Of a stretch of DNA of 32,000 nucleotides, positions 12,004-26,536 are shown piece by piece. Position numbers and translations under genes: made by a program. The stretch spans positions 4,380,001 to 4,412,000 of the forward strand of contig CP126532.1 of the NCBI GenBank assembly GCA_030167145.1, given 5' to 3'. This DNA is from Ktedonobacterales bacterium (GTDB lineage Bacteria; Chloroflexota; Ktedonobacteria; Ktedonobacterales; JADMIN01). The notes beneath the pieces are model-generated. The model was not told the DNA's origin. It was given only the letters and a program-made list of their open reading frames with translations, and searched no databases. Each line of letters starts with the position of its first letter. The first letter of the stretch is position 1.

Positions 12004-12266
12004 ATGCCCTCTGCCCTCACTCGCTCGATGTGGTTGCGCTGACGCCGGATCATACGTCGCCGGAATGCGCTCGCACCGATTATAGACTGCCACCGCGTCG
12101 CGCCGCCAGAATGCATGCGGGCTGGCTATGCGAATGCGGGCGTCGTACTGTGACCCATAGGTGAAGATGTGAAACAATCCATACCACAACTGGCTCTAAT
12201 GCTATTCAGTAGCCTGCGTGGGCCAGGCAGCGCCGCGTCGTGCCACAAGAAACTAGGGGAAACACT

Positions 12267-13118
12267 ATGGCGGAGACACCGACTATCGCCGACAGCTACA
12301 CGTTTGATCCGTTTGCGCGGCACAAGTTTTACCACGACGTCAACCTGTCGCTGGTACGAACGGCTATCGAACGGCTGGATCGCGACAAGCCCACCGGCGA
12401 GCGGGTGCGGGTGGTCGAATTGGCATCAGGAACCGGCGCGGTCACAGAGTTGATTCTCGATGAACTGGCGCGGCTGGGTCGGCCAGCGGAGGTCATCGGG
12501 GTCGAGCCGTCGTTCGAGGCCATCGCCGTCGCCCGCGAGCGGCTGGCGAACCGCGAGGTGCGCTTCGAGCAGGGCGATGTAGATCAACTGGTGCAGGTCG
12601 TGCCATCCGCCGACGCGGTCTTCTTCTGCAACGCTATCCATCTGGTGCCCGACAAACACGAGGTCATCGGCAAGATTGCGCGTGTGATCGCGCCAGGCGG
12701 CCTCTTCGCCTGCAATAGCTCGTTCTTCGAGGGCGCGTATGCGCCCGGCAGCGAGCGCTTCTATCATCTTTGGACCCGCCGCGCCCTCGGCTGGATGCGT
12801 CAGCATCACCCGGAAGCGCGGGTCTCGCGCGAGAAGAAGGCCACCGCAATGCAATGGCTCAGCGCGAGCGAATATGCGGATCTGCTGAACGATAGCGGGC
12901 TGCGTGTCGTCACCGATGAGCACGAGGTGGCGCTGATGCCGTTGCGCTCCTGGCAGGACATCGGGCGCTACTGGCTTTTCATCGAGGGCGCGCTCCCTGG
13001 GGTGCCGATTCCCATCGGCGCGGATGCGCTGGAGTACGCGGCAGCCGAAGCGTTCACCGAACTGAACATCAGCGAGGTGCCGCGCATCTGGCTGCAACTT
13101 GTCGCGCAGAAGGCGTAA
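12267..13118 (+). CDS. class I SAM-dependent methyltransferase
   Basis: Motif I VVELASGTGAVTE, post-I VIGVEPS, and motif II-like DAVFFCNAIHLV. The ATG at 12267 is preceded by AGGGGA. Confidence 0.85.
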   Translation: MAETPTIADSYTFDPFARHKFYHDVNLSLVRTAIERLDRDKPTGERVRVVELASGTGAVTELILDELARLGRPAEVIGVEPSFEAIAVARERLANREVRFEQGDVDQLVQVVPSADAVFFCNAIHLVPDKHEVIGKIARVIAPGGLFACNSSFFEGAYAPGSERFYHLWTRRALGWMRQHHPEARVSREKKATAMQWLSASEYADLLNDSGLRVVTDEHEVALMPLRSWQDIGRYWLFIEGALPGVPIPIGADALEYAAAEAFTELNISEVPRIWLQLVAQKA

Positions 13119-13134
13119 CGCTACAGCGCGAGCG

Positions 13135-13170
13135 GGGGCATGGCGATCTCAGGGTCGGCCATGCCCCTTT
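13135..13170 (+). terminator. intrinsic terminator candidate after the methyltransferase gene
   Basis: GGGGCATGGC (13135-13144) and GCCATGCCCC (13158-13167) form a perfect 10-bp stem with a 13-nt loop, followed by TTTCT. Confidence 0.55.
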
Positions 13171-13213
13171 CTATACCATGAATCCCAAGTCGCTCGCACA
13201 CTATTGGCGGGCG

Positions 13214-14410
13214 TCATACCGTCGGCTGGCGGACGAGCCGGAAACCGGTGTCTTCGGTGCGCTCGCCCATGAAGAGCTGGCTGCGGTGCGCGACGCGCGC
13301 CAGCGTGGCGCGGTCGTTCCAGGAACCGCCCGCGAGGTAGCCGGTGCTCTTGCGCTCCTCGCCCGTAATGGGATCGGGCCGCAGCAGCGGCGAGCCAGGT
13401 GGGATGCCACACCACTCGTTGACGCTGCCGGCCATATCTAGCGCGCCGTAGGGGCTGACACCGCCCGGATACGCGCCTACCGGCGTCGTGTCGCCCGGCC
13501 CGCCATCCTCGGTATTCGCGCGCGCTGGCTCCCAGACATTGCCCCACGGATAGATGCGGCCATCGGTCCCGCGCGCCGCCTTTTCCCAATCCTCCTCCGT
13601 GGGCAGTCGCCACGGCTCGCCCGTCACCTGTGTGAGCCATGCGGCGTAGGCCAGGGCGGTCTTCCAGGAGATCTGCGTGACGGGATGATCGGGGCGCATC
13701 ACTTGTTTCTGCCAGTCGGGGAGCGGTCGCGCGGCCTGCGCCTTCACCGCGTAGGCATACTCGGCCACCGTCACCGGATACTGACCGATCTCGAATGCCG
13801 CCACCTGGACCATACGTTGCGGAAACTCCGCATCAGTGGCCTGCGGGTCGCGAGCGGGGTCGCTGCCCATCAGGAACGCGCCAGCGGGCACGGGGCAAAC
13901 GGGCGGACGGATGACCTCGACGCCATCCACCACCCAGCCGGTGAATCCCCGCTGCGCCAGCGTGGGCGGCACGAGCTGCGGCGCGGGCGCGATCTGCTTC
14001 GGCGCGGGTGGCGCGGGGAAGACTACTGGCGAGCCGAGCGCGGTGAGCACGCGCTGCGCTCCCGTCGGCGCATCCAGCGCGCTCACATCCACCCACTGGC
14101 GCGTCACCAGAAAGCCTTCCACGGCGGTTGGCTTCAGCATCACCGGCAGGATTGTACGGCGGGTCGCCAGCGCCAACTTAACTTCTTCCTGTACCCACGG
14201 CGAAGCCCACGCCTCAGGGGTCAACACCACCACGAAGACCTCACGGCTCTGCACTTCGCGCTGTAACGTCTCGACCCAGGTGGCGCCGCCGGTCAGCCCT
14301 TGCTCGTCATACCAGACATCGTAGCCAGCGCCCTGTAGCGCGGCTACCAGCACCCGGCACCAGGCGTTATCTTGCGTGCTGTGGCTCACGAAGAGACGGG
14401 TAGCAGGCAT
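13214..14410 (-). CDS. TIR domain / FGE-sulfatase (SUMF1-like) domain fusion protein
   Basis: N-terminus: RLFVSHSTQDNAW...VFVVVLTPEAWASPWVQEEVKLAL (TIR_2-like, including the S-x-W...E motif). A Pro-rich linker follows (FPAPPAPKQIAPAPQLVPP). C-terminus: FLMGSD...HPVTQISWKTALAYAAWL...RLPTEEDWEKAARG...YPWGN...GALDMAGSVNEW...GGSWND...DTGFRLV (FGE-sulfatase fold). I chose the ATG at 14410 (GAGGAG upstream, 8 nt after the fabF stop) over the track start at 14437. Confidence 0.85.
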   Translation of the reverse strand: MPATRLFVSHSTQDNAWCRVLVAALQGAGYDVWYDEQGLTGGATWVETLQREVQSREVFVVVLTPEAWASPWVQEEVKLALATRRTILPVMLKPTAVEGFLVTRQWVDVSALDAPTGAQRVLTALGSPVVFPAPPAPKQIAPAPQLVPPTLAQRGFTGWVVDGVEVIRPPVCPVPAGAFLMGSDPARDPQATDAEFPQRMVQVAAFEIGQYPVTVAEYAYAVKAQAARPLPDWQKQVMRPDHPVTQISWKTALAYAAWLTQVTGEPWRLPTEEDWEKAARGTDGRIYPWGNVWEPARANTEDGGPGDTTPVGAYPGGVSPYGALDMAGSVNEWCGIPPGSPLLRPDPITGEERKSTGYLAGGSWNDRATLARVAHRSQLFMGERTEDTGFRLVRQPTV

Positions 14411-14417
14411 CTGTATT

Positions 14418-15662
14418 TCACTCCTCTGGCTTGCCAAGGATCACCACCGCGTTGTGGCCGCCAAAGCCCATCGAGTTCGAGAGCGCCACGCGGATGGCGC
14501 GCTTGCGCGCCATATTGGGCACGTAATCCAGGTCACATTCGGGGTCGGGATGCTCGTAGTTGATCGTCGGCGGCAGCATGCCATCACGCAGCGCCAGCGC
14601 AGTGATGACGATTTCGATGCCACCCGCCGCGCCCATCAAGTGGCCGGTCATAGATTTGGTAGAACTGATAGCAAGCTTGCTGGCGTGCTCACCAAAGACC
14701 GACTTGATCGCCGCCGTCTCCTGGCGGTCGTTGGGCTTGGTCGAGGTGCCGTGCGCGTTGATGTAGTCCACGCGCTCAGGCGCAAGCTCGGCCTTCTTCA
14801 GCGCCCGCCGCAATGCCCGCGCGAGGCCCGCCCCACCCGGCGCGGGATCGGTGATATGGTGCGCGTCAGAGGTGGAGGCGTACCCCAGCACTTCCGCATA
14901 GATCGTCGCGCCACGCGCCCGCGCATGTTCCAGCTCTTCCAGCACGACAACGCCCGCGCCCTCGCCCATCACGAAGCCATCGCGCTCGGCGTCGAAGGGA
15001 CGGCTGGCGCGTTCGGGGTCGTCGTTGCGCCGCGATAGGGCGTGCATGCTGGCGAACGCGGCCAGCGTCATCGGGGTGATGCCCGCCTCCGTGCCACCTG
15101 CAATCATCGCCACCGCGTCGCCGCGCTTGATCGTCTCATATGCTTCACCGATGGCGTTCGCGCCGGTGGCGCAGGCTGAGACCGTGGCGAAGTTCGGTCC
15201 ACGCGCGCCCATGCTCATCGAAACGAAGCCGCACGCCATATCCGCCACCATCTGGGTGATGAAGAACGGGCTAATACGGTCCGCCCCACGCTCAAAGAGC
15301 ACATGAAACTGGTCTTCCAGCGCATGTAGCCCGCCGCTTCCTGAACCGATGACGACGCCAACCTCATCCGCTATGGGGGCGATCTCCAATCCTGAGTCAG
15401 CGACGGCCTGCTGGGCGGCGGCGGCGGCGAAATGAATGAATCGCTCGGTGCGCCGCATGTCTTTGCGGTCGAGATAGGCCAGTGGGTCGAAGTCGCGCGC
15501 CTCAGCCGCAATACGCACATCGTGCTGGCTGGGGTCGAAGCTTGCCACAGTGCCGACGCCGGACCGCCCCTGGAGCAATGCCTCCCAACTGCTCGCCACA
15601 TCGTTGCCCAGTGGCGTCACCATCCCCATACCGCTTATCACTACTCGCGCTGCCATATGCAA
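14418..15662 (-). CDS. fabF: beta-ketoacyl-ACP synthase II
   Basis: Active-site Cys context TVSACATGANAIGEA, His motifs NAHGTSTKPND and TGHLMGAAG, and C-terminus SNSMGFGGHNAVVILG. Confidence 0.97.
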   Translation of the reverse strand: MHMAARVVISGMGMVTPLGNDVASSWEALLQGRSGVGTVASFDPSQHDVRIAAEARDFDPLAYLDRKDMRRTERFIHFAAAAAQQAVADSGLEIAPIADEVGVVIGSGSGGLHALEDQFHVLFERGADRISPFFITQMVADMACGFVSMSMGARGPNFATVSACATGANAIGEAYETIKRGDAVAMIAGGTEAGITPMTLAAFASMHALSRRNDDPERASRPFDAERDGFVMGEGAGVVVLEELEHARARGATIYAEVLGYASTSDAHHITDPAPGGAGLARALRRALKKAELAPERVDYINAHGTSTKPNDRQETAAIKSVFGEHASKLAISSTKSMTGHLMGAAGGIEIVITALALRDGMLPPTINYEHPDPECDLDYVPNMARKRAIRVALSNSMGFGGHNAVVILGKPEE

Positions 15663-15880
15663 ATTCCTCTGTGCTCTCTACCGCGACATGCTCCAAGGCC
15701 ATGCGGACAAAGAAAATCAGCCGTAATAGTACCCCATGATAGCGCGATGGTACAGGGTATTGTGTGCGATCCTGATTGCGGCTTGCCACTATCTGATACG
15801 ATAGTGGGGCGCGGGAACGCGGAATGCCGTGTTTCTGAGGAGCGCAACACGGGGATGTCTGCCGAAGGGGAATGGGATTC

Positions 15881-17461
15881 ATGAGGAAGGGCGCGATCCC
15901 GGTCGTAGCGTTGCTTGCCTGTATACTCGCCGCACTTGCTGGTTGTTCGCAACAGCAGAATACCGTGCGTATCGCTGGCACGATTCAGGGCGACGCGGCC
16001 AACTCAAGCACATCATCGTCGGCGACCATTGCGCCAGTGGCAGGGAAAGTCATCTGCAACGGCACGACGGTGAAAGCCGCCAGCGACGGCAGCTACGCAC
16101 TGACAGTGCCAGCCGCCAAGTCGTACACCTGTGTCGCGTCCAGCCCACCCGCGTATGGCGAGCAGCAGGTCATCATCAGTGGTCACACCGAGAAGAGCAT
16201 CGCGCTGAACTTCGGCACATCGCAGGCGCCCGCCTGCCAGTTGAATCGGATCTCCTTCGCGATTGACTGTCAACGGCTGCACTTCCAGCCTGGCGAACTG
16301 CATGGGCGCGTCACATTCACGCATAGCGGCGGCCCGGCCGCCAATATCAATATTCAGTGCCCGGACCTCGACCATTACACTGGAACCAGCAATGATGGCT
16401 CCGTTCAGTGGGTGCATACCAGGACCGATAGCGCGGGCTTTTACACCCTCAAGAACATATCCATTGGGTCATTTAATTGTCTGGCGCAGAACGCCCATGG
16501 CGATGTGACGATGGAACCCATCACCACCAGCCCCGGTAGCAACATCACGGCGGACTTGAAGGTCTGCGACAGCAATTGCCCGCCGGTGAAATACCACTTC
16601 GGCAATGTGATGCACGAGGATCATGTCTACGTGATCTTCTGGCTGCCACCGTCGTATACCTTCGATCCCGCCAACGGCGACGCGCACTACGAATCGCTCA
16701 TCAAGCGCTATTTTCAGGATGTCGGCGGCACGTCGTTCTATAATATTCTGACCCAATACGGTGATTACCTGGGGCAGATTCGCAACACCGCATCGCTGGC
16801 AGGCGCATGGGTGGATACCAGCCCGTACCAGCATTGCGGGCTGAGCACCACCAACTGCACTCCGGCGGCGGCGACACGCGCCGATCCGCTCCTCGATAAC
16901 GATATCCAGTCTGAGGTTGGCCGCGCGGTCAAGGCCAATGTGGGCTGGCGCGCCGATGCCAATAGCTCATTCTTCGTGTTGACCGGCTATGGCGCGCAGG
17001 AATGCATCACCGCTGATGCGAATTCCGGCTGCACCTGGAAGTTCGATAACGGGTACTGCGGCTATCACGACTCGTTCCACATCAACCCGCAGGACGCCAC
17101 CGCGCCTGAGGCAATCTACGCCTACATTCCCGACGCGATCACCAGTGGCGCAACCTGTTCGTTTGGCTCCGGCGGCAATTTCGTGAGTCCAAACCACGAT
17201 CCACTGGCCGATTCAGCGATCAACGTCATCTCACACGAGCAATTTGAGTCCATTTCGGACCCACTGCCTAATGATGCGCCCGGCTGGTATGATGACGTGG
17301 CGGAGCACACGCGCGAGGGTGGCGAGATCGGCGACAAGTGCGTGACCTTCTACGGCAACATCGGTTCCGATGGCGGCAACGTCTCCCTTAACGGGCATCG
17401 CTATATCGTGCAAGGGGAGTGGAGCAATCTATCGAATTCCTGCGTCATGAGCCAATCGTGA
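15881..17461 (+). CDS. secreted lipoprotein: two CarboxypepD_reg-like beta-sandwich repeats plus EXORDIUM/PHI-1-like C-terminal domain (paralog 1)
   Basis: Signal peptide with lipobox: MRKGAIPVVALLACILAALAG|C. The ATG at 15881 has AAGGGGA 9 nt upstream (track start 15872). The C-terminal domain (about 16577-17458) shows the EXORDIUM-like motif order YHxGxV...V(I/L)xW, CGYH, YAYIPD, SPNxD...HEQFESISDP, GWYD, DKC, NGHRY...W...C. Confidence 0.8.
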   Translation: MRKGAIPVVALLACILAALAGCSQQQNTVRIAGTIQGDAANSSTSSSATIAPVAGKVICNGTTVKAASDGSYALTVPAAKSYTCVASSPPAYGEQQVIISGHTEKSIALNFGTSQAPACQLNRISFAIDCQRLHFQPGELHGRVTFTHSGGPAANINIQCPDLDHYTGTSNDGSVQWVHTRTDSAGFYTLKNISIGSFNCLAQNAHGDVTMEPITTSPGSNITADLKVCDSNCPPVKYHFGNVMHEDHVYVIFWLPPSYTFDPANGDAHYESLIKRYFQDVGGTSFYNILTQYGDYLGQIRNTASLAGAWVDTSPYQHCGLSTTNCTPAAATRADPLLDNDIQSEVGRAVKANVGWRADANSSFFVLTGYGAQECITADANSGCTWKFDNGYCGYHDSFHINPQDATAPEAIYAYIPDAITSGATCSFGSGGNFVSPNHDPLADSAINVISHEQFESISDPLPNDAPGWYDDVAEHTREGGEIGDKCVTFYGNIGSDGGNVSLNGHRYIVQGEWSNLSNSCVMSQS

Positions 17462-17599
17462 CACGGCTTCACACTGCGTTACTGTACTTGGAAATCGCCA
17501 CTTGCATGCCGCTGATATGCTGGAGTGGCTCCGCCTAGATGGAAAGCATCGGCGGCGCGCTTGTGCTGTGGCGTCGGCAGCGGTGATGAGGTGCGAAGC

Positions 17600-19150
17600 A
17601 TGCGGCATGTGGCTCTCGTGATAATGGTGTTGGCGGTGGTGGTATCGGCGCTGACGGGATGCTCGGTGGGCGCGACGACGCTGATCGGCGGGCAGGTATT
17701 CGGCGAGCCAACTGGCGCTCCTGGGAGCGGCCACGACATCGTCGCACTGCGCGCGACAGTCAAGTGCAACAATACCTCCGCGCAGACGGGCAGCGATGGC
17801 AAGTATTCGTTGCGCGTTTCGCCAGCGGATAGTTACACCTGCACTGCGTCCGCATCGCACTACACGCCGCAGACTACGACCATTAGCGGCGCTGGCGACG
17901 TGATCGAACTGGACTTCGGCGCACCGCAGAGTCAGGCGTGCGGCCCAGTTGGCGATGCGTCGGAGATCGAATGCCCCGCGCTCACCATCCTGCGCGGCAC
18001 GCTCACAGGCGTGGTGAGCTATAGCGGCGGCGGACACGTTGGGGCGGGCATCACGGTGGCATGCGCGCCAACCGATGGCAGCGCCATTACGCCGGATAGC
18101 GAATCGTCGCTCTGGGTGTCTACCAAAACCAACGCCAACGGCGCGTATACCCTGGAATCCGTTCTGCCGGGCGATAATGGCTGCATCGCCCAGACGGATG
18201 CGAAGGTGGCGGCATATTCGGCCGCACAGATTCCGAGCAACGGCGCCGCGAAGCTGAACTTCACGCTCTGCCAGCGCCACTGCCCGCCAGTGCGTTACCA
18301 TCTCGGCAATGTCATGCACACCTATACCGCATACCTCATCTACTGGCTCCCGGCGTCCTCTACGTTCGAGCCACACGGCAGCGACAGCCGCTTCGAGTCG
18401 CTGACACAGCGCTATTTTCAGGATGTCGGCGGCACATCGTTCTACAATCTGCTCACTCAGTACTGGGACTACCAGGGCTACATACGCAACTCAGCCAAGC
18501 TTGGCGGTACGTATGTGGATACGTCTGCGTACCAGAAATGCGACGAGTCATTCGCGCATTGCGCGCCGGTCGCGGCCACGAAGAACGCGCCCCTACAAGA
18601 CAATGACATCCAGGCGGAGATTGCGCGGGCGCTGAAGGCGCATCCCTCCTGGCAGGTGGGGCCAGACAGTGAGTTCGTGGTGTTGACCGGCTATGGCGCG
18701 GAAGAGTGCGTGCCCGGCAAACCGACCATCTGCTCGTTCAACCACGGCACAAACGGGTTCTGCGGGTATCATTCCGCCTTCGATGGCGCGCAGGTAGACA
18801 AAACAGACGCCGCCGTGATCTATGCCTATATCCCCGATCCGGCGAACGACGGCGCGTATTGCACGGGCGGCGGCGGTAGCTTCCCCACGCCGAATGGCGA
18901 CGCGACTGCGGATTTAGCGATCACCATCATGTCGCACGAGCAGTTCGAGTCAGTGAGCGACCCCAATCCGGGGGTAGGGGCCTGGTATGACGATGCGCTG
19001 CCACAGAGCGAGAACGAAATTGCCGATAAATGCGAGTCCAACTTCGGGAGCATTGGCGCTGATGGCGGCAACGTGACGCTGGCGCACGGACACCGCTATC
19101 TGCTGCAAGCCGAATGGAGCAATCGCAGCAACGGCTGCGCCTTCAAGTGA
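17600..19150 (+). CDS. secreted lipoprotein, paralog 2 of 15881-17461
   Basis: MRHVALVIMVLAVVVSALTG|C lipobox. GAGGTG lies 7 nt upstream of the ATG at 17600 (track start 17525). It is colinear with paralog 1 over its full length. By eye it is roughly half to 60% identical in the C-terminal domain, including a 26-nt identical run (16707-16732 = 18409-18434). Confidence 0.8.
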   Translation: MRHVALVIMVLAVVVSALTGCSVGATTLIGGQVFGEPTGAPGSGHDIVALRATVKCNNTSAQTGSDGKYSLRVSPADSYTCTASASHYTPQTTTISGAGDVIELDFGAPQSQACGPVGDASEIECPALTILRGTLTGVVSYSGGGHVGAGITVACAPTDGSAITPDSESSLWVSTKTNANGAYTLESVLPGDNGCIAQTDAKVAAYSAAQIPSNGAAKLNFTLCQRHCPPVRYHLGNVMHTYTAYLIYWLPASSTFEPHGSDSRFESLTQRYFQDVGGTSFYNLLTQYWDYQGYIRNSAKLGGTYVDTSAYQKCDESFAHCAPVAATKNAPLQDNDIQAEIARALKAHPSWQVGPDSEFVVLTGYGAEECVPGKPTICSFNHGTNGFCGYHSAFDGAQVDKTDAAVIYAYIPDPANDGAYCTGGGGSFPTPNGDATADLAITIMSHEQFESVSDPNPGVGAWYDDALPQSENEIADKCESNFGSIGADGGNVTLAHGHRYLLQAEWSNRSNGCAFK

Positions 19151-23455: not shown

Positions 23456-24076
23456 ATGCGGGCGCAGGATTGCGCGTTCTGTAATCGCGGGCACCTGAGC
23501 AATATCTTGATGGAGTCCGAGCGCTTTCTGTTGCTCGCCGATCATGCGCCACTGGTCGCAGGGCATCTGCTGATCATTCCTAGAGAGCATTATGCCTGTT
23601 ATGGCGCTGTGCCAGCAGACCTGGAGGACGAGTTGCTCGCGCTCAAAGCGCGCGTGGCGGACTTCCTTGCCGCCGCCTATCATGTGCCGATCTTCTTCGA
23701 GCATGGCGTCTTTCGCCAGACGGTGTATCATGCCCACCTGCATGCGATTCCGCTCGGCGCGGAGAGCTTCCGCCTCGACGATCTGCTCACCGATGGCGCG
23801 CGGCGCGTCCACACGCCCGCCGACATTCGCGCGTGGTACGCCGAGCGCGGTCACTACTACTACATCGAGCATCTTGCCCGCGACGGTTCCTCACCCGAAG
23901 CCGTGATCTTCCCGCCGGCGTATGAGCCATACTTCAGCGCGCTTGGGCGGCTGCGCAACGCTTCGGGGCAATTGGGCGCCTGGGAACCACAGCCGCTGCG
24001 CCGCCTCCACAGTCAGTCTAAGATAGACGCGCTGAAACGCGCATGGGAGGAGTATGCAAGGAGAGCGGGTGGTTGA
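23456..24076 (+). CDS. HIT (histidine triad) family protein
   Basis: Histidine triad VYHAHLHAIP and N-terminal CAFC...LVAGHLLIIPREH. GGGGAGG SD 8 nt upstream. The last ~20 codons are duplicated in diverged form at 26490-26549. Confidence 0.85.
   Translation: MRAQDCAFCNRGHLSNILMESERFLLLADHAPLVAGHLLIIPREHYACYGAVPADLEDELLALKARVADFLAAAYHVPIFFEHGVFRQTVYHAHLHAIPLGAESFRLDDLLTDGARRVHTPADIRAWYAERGHYYYIEHLARDGSSPEAVIFPPAYEPYFSALGRLRNASGQLGAWEPQPLRRLHSQSKIDALKRAWEEYARRAGG
24011..24057 (+). repeat. direct repeat copy 1 (3' end of the HIT gene; candidate attL-like junction)
   Basis: agtcagtctAAGATAGACGCGCTGAAACGCGCatgggaggagtatgc. The 23-nt core at 24020-24042 is identical to 26499-26521. Confidence 0.9.
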
Positions 24077-24614: not shown

Positions 24615-24830
24615 ATGAGCATGATTGATACGCTCTTACAGCGTAACGTGGAACTCGATGATCACTATGATGCGATCACGCAACTGGATGGAGCCGCATT
24701 CCTCCATCTAGCTGCCGGGTTCGTCGCCGGGCACAAAGCCCATTTCCGGCGTTGGGACTTCGCCTGGCTGCATCACGCGCTGCGCGATTCGGTCAGTTTT
24801 TGTATCGCCAGCAGTGAGGAAAGGAGGTGA
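24615..24830 (+). CDS. small hypothetical protein (71 aa)
   Basis: The ATG at 24615 is preceded by GAGAGGAA (7 nt). It ends 7 nt before the merR-like start. No recognisable domain, so its coding status is uncertain. Confidence 0.4.
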   Translation: MSMIDTLLQRNVELDDHYDAITQLDGAAFLHLAAGFVAGHKAHFRRWDFAWLHHALRDSVSFCIASSEERR

Positions 24831-24837
24831 AGCTGTT

Positions 24838-25713
24838 ATGTTTCGTATTGGCGAATTTTCCCTCATCGCCCAGGTATCGGGACGGCTCCTGCGTTACTAC
24901 GACGAGATAGGGTTGCTCAGCCCGGAGTATACCGATCCGCAGACGGGCTATCGCTACTATAGCGCCGCACAATTGCCCCACCTCAATCGCATTCTCGTCT
25001 TGAAGGAACTCGGGTTGGGACTCGACCAGATTGCCCGGCTCCTGAGTCAGGGCGCCTCCTCCGAGGAGATTCGGGGCATGCTGCTGTTGCGGAAAGCGCA
25101 AATCACGCAGGCGATGCAGGATGGCTTGGACCAACTTCACCTGGTCGAAGCCCGTCTCGATCAGATGGACGCATTTGGCCAGACGCCGGTTCTCGATGTG
25201 GTGGTGAAGGCGATCCCATCCCAACGATATCTGGCGCTACGCGAAGTATTCCCAGACGTTGCGTCCGTCCGTCGGTTGGTAGTACACATGACGACTATCG
25301 TGCCGCACAAAATGCCCGCGAGTAGCCTGGGCCAGATTGCCTTTGTCGTTCACTCGCGGATGTTTGACCCAGATGCCCTGGACTTTGAGGTCGGCTTTCT
25401 CCTCACGGGCAACCCTGGAAATAGTGGAAAGACCCCCACTGCGTTCCAACTTTCGGAGGAACGGGTATTGACCGTGCATGACCTCCCGGCGGTTGAGATG
25501 ATGGCGACGCTGGTCCATGTTGGAAGCATCACCGACATCCACCGCACGTATGGCCTGCTGGGCGCCTGGGTGGAGCAGCAGCAGTGGCAGATCGTGGGGC
25601 AGGGCCGGCAAGTCCTCTTGCAGCTCCCGCAACCCGGTCACGACGATGCCGTCATTGAACTCCAGATTCCGGTCAGCAAGGCGGGTACACCGTACCTGCA
25701 GCAAGACATGTAG
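24838..25713 (+). CDS. MerR-family transcriptional regulator with C-terminal GyrI-like (SbmC/BmrR-type) effector-binding domain
   Basis: MFRIGEFSLIAQVSGRLLRYYDEIGLLSPEYTDPQTGYRYYS is a classic MerR wHTH. A coiled-coil linker follows, then a ~160-aa GyrI-like C-terminus. AAAGGAGGTGA lies 8 nt upstream of the ATG at 24838 (track start 24814). Confidence 0.9.
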   Translation: MFRIGEFSLIAQVSGRLLRYYDEIGLLSPEYTDPQTGYRYYSAAQLPHLNRILVLKELGLGLDQIARLLSQGASSEEIRGMLLLRKAQITQAMQDGLDQLHLVEARLDQMDAFGQTPVLDVVVKAIPSQRYLALREVFPDVASVRRLVVHMTTIVPHKMPASSLGQIAFVVHSRMFDPDALDFEVGFLLTGNPGNSGKTPTAFQLSEERVLTVHDLPAVEMMATLVHVGSITDIHRTYGLLGAWVEQQQWQIVGQGRQVLLQLPQPGHDDAVIELQIPVSKAGTPYLQQDM

Positions 25714-26303: not shown

Positions 26304-26489
26304 GATCGTTGCTATGACGACGCGGAGGAATGACGACGGGAAGCAAATAGATGGCTCTCGGCGGCGCCCGGCGGAGACGCATCCTGAGATTCGCCGGGCA
26401 GTCGTGGGCGAGCGCATCGCACCAATGGCGTCTGGCGCTGGTGTGGCCCTCACCCTTGACACGACGTTCGCCGAGGCGCTGGCATCCGC

Positions 26490-26536
26490 AGCCAGCCCAA
26501 GATAGACGCGCTGAAACGCGCGTGGCAGGAGTACGC
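26490..26536 (+). repeat. direct repeat copy 2 (candidate attR-like junction)
   Basis: agccagcccAAGATAGACGCGCTGAAACGCGCgtggcaggagtacgc. Same 23-nt core as copy 1, lying 2479 bp downstream of it. Confidence 0.9.

Follow-up and report, generated by a model that had tools for sequence, protein, structure and literature searches.

The closest described relatives of the gene discussed here belong to the predicted bacterial conflict systems built around FGS (FGE-sulfatase) domains. FGS has been described as a lectin-fold, 'invader-sensing' or 'neutralising' domain that always lies C-terminal to effector domains (Kaur et al., 2020, PMC7159879; Kaur et al., 2021, PMC8195603). It is enriched in multicellular bacteria, often diversified by diversity-generating retroelements (DGRs), and usually found in combination with STAND or KAP NTPases or MoxR-vWA ternary systems (PMC7159879; PMC8195603). 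The later survey also lists solo 'TIR+FGS*->' proteins of Chloroflexi, a tandem pair included (Figure 2-source data 1, section 5), for example the 421-amino-acid Anaerolineae protein KAB2904273.1, as well as a TIR+FGS gene beside genes for a reverse transcriptase (RT) and a TIR+nSTAND1+FGS protein, and dozens of solo TIR+NPCBM proteins, which follow the same design with another lectin fold (PMC8195603). Later work on bacterial NLR-like proteins speaks of FGS as their sensor or 'antigen-receptor-type' domain, with the ligand not named (PMC13581612; bioRxiv 2022.07.19.500537). Here we describe a TIR–FGS gene in a 32,000-nucleotide stretch, hereafter the window, of the genome of a Ktedonobacterales bacterium (Chloroflexota; assembly GCA_030167145.1, contig CP126532.1, positions 4,380,001 to 4,412,000). 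The gene is complete, occupies positions 13214..14410 on the minus strand and encodes 398 amino acids. It is a new member of a computationally catalogued, experimentally untried kind, and we give even chances to the reading that its product is a cytoplasmic single-chain receptor-effector in which ligand binding by FGS would cluster the TIR domains and lead to NAD+ cleavage.

The TIR domain spans residues 5-112 (14075..14398, minus strand), as delimited by Pfam TIR_2, by phmmer against PDB sequences and by an AlphaFold2 model. TIR_2 (PF13676) matches residues 7-112 with an E-value of 1.4e-24 (87.4 bits against a cutoff of 28), and the model, which was built on a 66-sequence alignment and has a mean predicted local distance difference test score (pLDDT) of 85.7, reaches 86-94 over the TIR core. 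The domain has a strand βA (FVSHS), a BB-loop-like segment (WYDEQGLTGG) and a helix αC with a WxxxE motif; LFVSHSTQDNAW corresponds to residues 6-17, VFVVVLTP to 58-65 and SPWVQEEV to 70-77. PDB sequences matching residues 2-103 were those of PdTIR (3h16), AbTIR (7uwg/8g83), a related TIR (7uxr) and SPARTA TIR-APAZ. In the alignments with AbTIR and PdTIR, F7-x-S9-H10-x3-D14 corresponds to the βA motif, W33-Y34-D35 to the start of the BB loop and W72/E76 to WxxxE, these last two residues being aligned with their counterparts in 'WTNYEL' (AbTIR) and 'WPQKEL' (PdTIR). The predicted catalytic glutamate, assigned by alignment and conservation, is E76 (codon GAA, 14183..14185, minus strand; motif S70-x-W72-x3-E76), which sits in a predicted helix (residues 71-82) and falls on the position of E208, the catalytic glutamate of AbTIR. 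Residues S9, H10, D14, D35, S70, W72 and E76 do not vary among the 66 aligned homologues, and of 83 cluster representatives 63 keep E76, just as many as match TIR_2. The top matches of this part of the protein in the defence libraries were the pAgo-associated Aga_TIR (2.8e-14) and SAVED_TIR (2.8e-9). A match to the Thoeris type III model ThcB4 (1.2e-8) was also found, and the ThsB matches were weaker (ThsB_TIR, 21.3 bits against a cutoff of 21.2; best PADLOC ThsB model, 4.3e-6). No PADLOC model covers the full protein; the Aga, SAVED and ThsB matches are confined to residues 2-95 and leave FGS uncovered. Judged by its sequence, the TIR domain carries every hallmark of NAD+-cleaving bacterial TIRs, and it is probably NAD-cleaving itself.

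The remainder of the protein is an FGS domain of C-type-lectin-like fold (residues 169-398; 13217..13906, minus strand), identified by Pfam FGE-sulfatase (PF03781; residues 173-394, E 2.9e-42, 145.5 bits against a cutoff of 23.3) and by Foldseek. Its framework motifs are present (RLPTEEDWEKAARG, YPWGN, DMAGSVNEW, GGSW and GFRLV), and the top Foldseek matches in the PDB are exclusively of the FGE fold, with a probability of 1.00 for ToxD, formylglycine-generating enzyme (FGE), pFGE, EgtB, PvdO and TvpA. ToxD, a protein of toxoflavin biosynthesis, is the nearest solved relative both by sequence (E 4e-30) and by fold (7spq, 5e-18); CalU17, bacterial and human FGE, OvsA and TvpA (2y3c, 4e-10) are other folds near it. 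In true FGEs the loop that follows GGS[FY] holds a pair of catalytic cysteines that bind copper. In the window protein the segment that follows GGSW reads NDRATLARVAHRS and contains no cysteine, and the loop as aligned to human FGE (GGSWNDRATLARVAHRS, residues 361-377; 13280..13330, minus strand) is likewise free of them; the only cysteines of the domain, C171 and C334, both lie off the catalytic loop. Two or more cysteines in the loop occur in only one of the 66 homologues and one of the 83 representatives, and a single one is found occasionally, at the 'ARCA' position. EgtB-type chemistry, in turn, needs an N-terminal DinB iron domain (DinB_2, with a three-histidine site), and in the window protein that N-terminal position is taken by TIR. 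The EgtB and OvoA models score far under their cutoffs (TIGR03440, 55.5 bits against 360; ovoA_Nterm, 30 against 400). Because the cysteine pair is absent, the DinB domain is replaced by TIR and the equivalog scores are so low, the FGS domain is, on sequence criteria, neither an FGE nor an EgtB. The loss of the copper-binding pair and the absence of the iron domain lead us to infer that it is a ligand-binding module rather than an enzyme. These results bear out the original prediction, made from the letters of the DNA, of a TIR domain fused to a cysteine-less FGE-sulfatase domain (TIR_2, PF03781 and the motifs it quoted), with a catalytic-type glutamate in SPWVQEEV and without the FGE cysteine pair. 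The checks that it proposed, structure prediction with Foldseek and comparison with human FGE and EgtB, likewise returned the FGE fold with ToxD first and found neither the cysteine pair nor an EgtB-level score.

Sequence variation is distributed unevenly over the protein. The TIR domain is better conserved than FGS, with a mean column entropy of 0.83 against 1.10 in the orthologue group and identities of 70-83% against 61-73%. The most variable segment is the linker, with an entropy of 1.51 against the 0.83 of TIR. It comprises a helix and a Pro/Ala-rich stretch followed by a short β-hairpin leading into FGS (residues 113-168; 13907..14074, minus strand; delimited by sequence, entropy and pLDDT), and its pLDDT rises from 72-74 at residues 121-140 up to 96-97 in the hairpin (residues 141-168). 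Within FGS, the 10-residue windows of peak entropy are those at 346, 351 and 341, just N-terminal of GGSW. The corresponding stretch, residues about 341-360 (LLRPDPITGEERKSTGYLA; 13331..13390, minus strand), also has the lowest pLDDT of the domain (66-79), and by both measures it is a candidate ligand-contact loop. A second variable window appears near residue 381 once all 66 sequences are compared. In DGR-type FGS proteins the variable region lies C-terminally in the fold (Kaur et al., 2020, PMC7159879), and by analogy residues 341-360 would fall near that position.

The architecture itself is common and has already been catalogued computationally as a predicted immune sensor. The translation is 100% identical to hypothetical protein OJF49_004229 (P0001) on the 5.07-Mb contig of a Ktedonobacterales metagenome-assembled genome (MAG), and this source contig holds at least three further TIR–FGS paralogues (P0080, P0086 and P0107) at 43-45% identity, making at least four dispersed copies in total. 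An apparent orthologue group comprises about 45 full-length sequences, at least 55% identical, from Ktedonobacterales metagenome bins. More widely, HMMER was run exhaustively over 1.84 billion cluster representatives; 143,201 of them are FGS-related at E ≤ 1e-3, a number that falls to 3,171 at E ≤ 1e-30. We counted architectures in 83 of the best 50%-identity cluster representatives, which reach up to about 900 amino acids. TIR_2 is combined with FGE-sulfatase in 63 of the 83, and in the others a similar FGS is fused to TPR, Pkinase, PNP_UDP_1, EAD7 or caspase. That the nearest FGS domains by sequence carry other death or effector modules at the N-terminus (PNP_UDP_1, caspase, EAD7, Pkinase) counts for a receptor-effector reading. 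Full-length TIR–FGS matches also occur, among the matches listed, in genomes of Chloroflexia, Bryobacteraceae and Accumulibacter.

Two further loci, met independently of the published lists, show arrangements of the kind given in PMC8195603. In Candidatus Accumulibacter affinis (L080 1826-7263) a gene for a 1353-residue ParA/CbiA-TIR-nSTAND1-FGS protein is followed, after a 110-nt gap, by one for a 421-residue TIR–FGS protein; a DUF4062 protein is encoded upstream, and NTPase-containing and NTPase-free FGS sensors are thus clustered at one locus. A Bryobacteraceae MAG (L041 3609-6413) has tandem TIR–FGS genes for 518 and 388 amino acids on the same strand. The FGS fold is used on the phage side too: Microcystis phages (LMM01, NC_008562.1 41691-42407, and the MaMV group) encode FGS domains of about 32% identity that are labelled 'kinase' or hypothetical. 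In the source genome a DinB/DinB_2-family gene lies convergent to the paralogue P0080 (L090 9516-10022) and another lies 6 kb from P0086 (L091). EgtB is a DinB-FGE fusion, and DinB genes are very common in the phylum; a split arrangement is conceivable, and these two cases are probably chance proximity.

In the window, the gene lies directly behind fabF (14418..15662, minus strand), which its TIGR03150 score of 618 bits against a cutoff of 494 marks as bona fide. The fabF stop codon (TGA, 14420-14418) is separated by 7 nt from the ATG at 14410, close to the 8 nt originally given; the TIR–FGS frame then runs to the stop codon at 13216-13214, by the open reading frame (ORF) list and the sequence alike. 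This ATG is the likely start codon, since homologues start at the same methionine (consensus MxxTRxFVSHS) and a Shine-Dalgarno-like hexamer, GAGGAG (14421..14426, minus strand), lies 10 nt upstream of it, within the final fabF codons. A longer reading from TTG 14437, which would overlap fabF, is unlikely given the homologue starts and the position of GAGGAG. We found no promoter-like or terminator-like sites in 12900-16000, and the two genes are therefore likely to be co-transcribed in the source genome. The fabF gene is itself solitary (14418-15871): acpP, fabD, fabG and fabH are absent from the window, its 5' side has only a 209-nt divergent intergenic region, and it may be a second, non-operonic KAS II copy.

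The contexts of relatives speak to whether this arrangement means anything. We compared nine orthologues (62-76% identity, seven distinct arrangements) and the three source-genome paralogues, with five distant loci besides. Orthologues were found beside a GDSL lipase and a methyltransferase (twice), Pkinase, ECH and thiolase, a glyoxalase and GH1, an NHL protein and 4HBT, Peptidase_M20 (three times, with varying downstream genes and MetH nearby) or genes of unknown function. fabF recurred in none of the seven distinct orthologue contexts and none of the three paralogue contexts, and no constant neighbour or conserved partner gene was seen across them; family members typically stand singly amid unrelated housekeeping genes. 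As fabF is never repeated beside orthologues or paralogues, we conclude that its adjacency is positional and not functional. The original prediction had thought the fabF linkage worth explaining and had proposed a survey of orthologue neighbourhoods; it was right that the gene directly follows a true fabF, and the linkage dissolved on that survey. The methyltransferase gene downstream of the window copy is not orthologous to the one beside the closest orthologues (24% identity, E 0.002). One Ktedonobacterales sub-lineage (P0030/L004, P0033, P0034) keeps the order MetH...Peptidase_M20→TIR–FGS, and in L001 (12076-15669) about 3 kb separate MetH from the orthologue; the window copy, by comparison, has no MetH within reach, which suggests that it was relocated beside fabF. 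A DDE_3 transposase gene lies directly downstream in the P0034 context.

How might such a protein act? It has neither a signal peptide nor a transmembrane segment, strand βA beginning at residue 5, and it is cytoplasmic. In the receptor-effector reading the free TIR–FGS protein would be inactive. FGS would bind a ligand, most likely a multivalent or polymeric invader molecule (a protein or a glycan), and several copies would thereby be gathered. The gathered TIR domains could then pack into head-to-tail arrays, forming a composite active site, an arrangement that, to our knowledge, all known TIR NADases need. NAD+ would be cleaved, giving either depletion or a signal of the cyclic ADP-ribose (cADPR) type, and the affected cell of the filament would stop growing. 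Such a scheme would require neither an NTPase switch nor a partner gene, and transcription from the fabF promoter would reflect solely the chance position of the gene. Self-association is an established requirement for TIR NADase activity in SARM1, AbTIR, TIR-SAVED, TIR-STING and SPARTA, and on this ground we propose the clustering step. An invader molecule is favoured as the trigger by the conflict-system links of relatives elsewhere. The sensor-plus-effector division of labour, already put forward in the original prediction, matches the published computational proposals for FGS (PMC7159879; PMC8195603).

Several points weigh against the receptor-effector reading. That ligand binding oligomerises the protein is taken from other TIR systems by analogy only. 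The gene lies outside any defence island: only housekeeping genes surround it in the window, where PADLOC finds no credible system. Its composition is native, with a GC content at third codon positions of 0.81 (neighbours 0.66-0.84) and a codon distance of 0.196 (range 0.154-0.248), and no full-length TIR–FGS copy was found in the plasmid and phage collections; on both counts we rejected recent horizontal transfer. The orthologues seem vertically inherited and fairly conserved, with less turnover than is usual for defence genes. Finally, the literature searched holds no experimental test of a TIR–FGS protein, as had been supposed at the outset.

Four other readings bear on the same evidence. 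The scattered housekeeping contexts, the native composition and a conservation not far below that of MetH are compatible with an endogenous role in development or stress, in which the trigger of the same chemistry would be a glycan, a wall fragment or a metabolite of the cell itself, for instance in programmed death of hyphal compartments or in kin recognition in the mycelial, sporulating Ktedonobacteria. We regard such a self-ligand, stress or developmental sensor as unlikely, though worth keeping in view. The genes stand singly, the MetH...Peptidase_M20→TIR–FGS synteny is kept in a sub-lineage, and in one pair of genomes identity is 75% for the TIR part and 64% for FGS, compared with 77% for MetH; no copies on mobile elements were found, and FGS systems are enriched in multicellular bacteria (PMC8195603). 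However, in other places related FGS proteins are accompanied by STAND NTPases, reverse transcriptases of DGRs and further conflict-system components, the presence of several divergent paralogues in a genome agrees with a diversification against varied targets, and nothing points to a self ligand. Only slightly less probable, and also unlikely in our estimate, is signalling as in ThsB, with TIR making a cADPR isomer or another second messenger that would activate an effector encoded elsewhere in the genome. AbTIR, which makes a cADPR isomer, is among the best-aligned solved TIRs, and the weak ThsB_TIR, PADLOC ThsB and ThcB4 matches point the same way, but the better-scoring TIR models (Aga_TIR, SAVED_TIR) are of the effector type. 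Moreover, no ThsA-like gene (SIR2, SLOG or Macro) adjoins in the window, in agreement with the original prediction and with the Pfam and PADLOC scans of the window ORFs, and none is recorded in the annotated orthologue, paralogue and distant contexts. Thoeris or any other multigene system was set aside, there being no conserved partner in any context and PADLOC matches to the TIR part alone.

It is less probable still, and in our view doubtful, that FGS has a catalytic activity of its own or, like ToxD, EgtB or CalU17, binds a small molecule, with TIR serving as an NAD-linked or oligomerisation module. The kinship with ToxD by sequence and fold, and the likewise biosynthetic folds of CalU17, EgtB and OvsA, speak for this possibility. 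Set against them are the missing FGE cysteine pair and DinB iron domain, the scores far under the equivalog cutoffs, the lack of a biosynthetic cluster in any context examined, and a variability that peaks where a conserved active site would be expected; moreover, the database names are automatic. A functional link of the protein with fabF and fatty-acid synthesis, such as the sensing of acyl or lipid intermediates, we consider very improbable. Besides the 7-nt gap, the Shine-Dalgarno sequence inside fabF and the lack of a terminator or promoter between the genes, this reading can draw on the first nine Ktedonobacterales contexts, five of which have an acyl or lipid enzyme immediately adjacent (fabF, GDSL lipase, 4HBT, ECH with thiolase, and MaoC). 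Yet fabF never appears again beside an orthologue or paralogue, and the lipid pattern, a post-hoc grouping, failed in all three further contexts fetched as a test and in all five distant loci, and we therefore rejected it.

The receptor-effector reading can be carried one step further, to a proposal that we hold tentatively and consider rather unlikely as a whole: by analogy, TIR–FGS might be a minimal, NTPase-free pattern-recognition receptor in which a germline-encoded FGS gates a TIR NADase by clustering. Its members would form a vertically inherited, multi-paralogue family of mycelial Ktedonobacteria whose role, instead of classical abortive infection against phages, may lie in the programmed death of compartments or in self/non-self recognition. 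If true, these proteins would parallel lectin-type innate immune receptors in the simplest bacterial form and give practicable access to the ligands of FGS 'antigen-receptor' domains. FGS has repeatedly been proposed as an 'antigen-receptor-type' sensor in NLR-like and ternary conflict systems, and the literature searched names no FGS ligand and contains no test of an FGS-bearing protein. A two-domain, partner-free protein of 398 amino acids is about the simplest construct that would read FGS recognition as NAD+ cleavage, and it offers a convenient experimental handle. In other respects the finding is ordinary: many proteins of this architecture exist and have been catalogued, and the gene lies beside fabF by an accident of position. 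The novelty implied by the original prediction was overstated, given the solo TIR+FGS proteins listed in PMC8195603 and the architecture shared by most of the cluster representatives that we counted.

The other genes of the window are housekeeping genes throughout: GMP synthase, an epimerase, Usp, pyrimidine-nucleoside phosphorylase, a rhomboid-TPR protein, UbiA, the methyltransferase and fabF, followed by two CarboxypepD_reg proteins, UDP-glucose dehydrogenase, an MBL-fold protein, Lgt, MerR and NuoC/D/H. No STAND NTPase, ThsA-like or RT gene was found in the 32 kb, no NTPase domain in the TIR–FGS protein, no sulfatase domain among the window ORFs scanned and no Rfam match in the window. A MADS system was considered on the strength of PADLOC matches to mad2 (5e-16; the methyltransferase, 12240-13118, plus strand) and mad1 (9e-7; MerR, 24814-25713, plus strand) and was rejected, these being partial matches to generic domains 12 kb apart. 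The gene was likewise rejected as a DGR target: its 3' end (13214-13400) takes part in no repeat pairs, and the window ORFs include no RT domain. Some further features of the window were also seen. Divergent from fabF lie the tandem paralogues 15872-17461 and 17525-19150 (plus strand; about 530-540 amino acids), which carry CarboxypepD_reg, the second with a weak Phi_1-like C-terminal match; their repeat blocks D1, D2, D4 and D6 are 70-81% identical in DNA. In addition, a 55-nt direct repeat links 24003-24057 with 26482-26536 (85% identical). Its first copy is the 3' end of a 206-residue ORF (23456-24076) with an HxHxH motif, HIT-like by eye, that ends ...SKIDALKRAWEEYARRAGG; the second has the same frame by eye (…SQPKIDALKRAWQEYALGG*), is not preceded by a long ORF, and is probably a remnant of a duplicated gene.

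Compared with the FGS conflict systems described by Kaur and colleagues, the window protein shares the N-terminal TIR and C-terminal FGS, the occurrence in Chloroflexi and other multicellular bacteria, and the several paralogues per genome, sometimes in tandem. It differs in that those papers centre on the NTPase switch, MoxR-vWA ternary systems and DGRs, of which the gene has none in the window, and in that it lacks conflict-system neighbours and belongs to a fairly conserved Ktedonobacterales orthologue group. The solo actinobacterial TIR+NPCBM proteins (PMC8195603, Fig. 2H) are similar as two-domain combinations of TIR and a lectin fold of about 300-370 amino acids, often standing alone without a conserved neighbour in filamentous bacteria, whereas their lectin fold is NPCBM rather than FGS and their phylum is another. 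Thoeris ThsB has a TIR with the conserved glutamate, and the window protein matches ThsB_TIR at the borderline; unlike ThsB, it has no ThsA nearby and carries a large sensor domain fused to its TIR.

With SUMF1, pFGE (SUMF2), EgtB/OvoA, PvdO and ToxD, the protein shares the FGE-sulfatase fold and the motifs DHPV, RLPTE.EWE.AARG, YPWG, GGSW and GFR, and it differs in having neither the catalytic cysteine pair nor a DinB domain and in standing apart from sulfatase and biosynthetic genes; pFGE and PvdO resemble it in being without the FGE active site. The DGR variable proteins Mtd and TvpA and the DGR-diversified CLec/FGS sensors (PMC10907252) have the same fold, with the greatest variation in the C-terminal third, as here. 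In contrast to them, the window gene has no template repeat or RT within 32 kb, and its orthologues differ by ordinary divergence. With TIR-SAVED, TIR-STING, SPARTA TIR-APAZ and AbTIR, finally, the window protein has in common the TIR hallmarks and the catalytic glutamate. The sensors of these ligand-clustered TIR NADases have cyclic nucleotides, or guide RNA together with target DNA, as their ligands, whereas that of the window protein is a lectin-fold FGS with a putative ligand. The shared logic, that a sensor fused or bound to the TIR domains makes them oligomerise and thereby switches on NAD+ cleavage, would by analogy extend to TIR–FGS.

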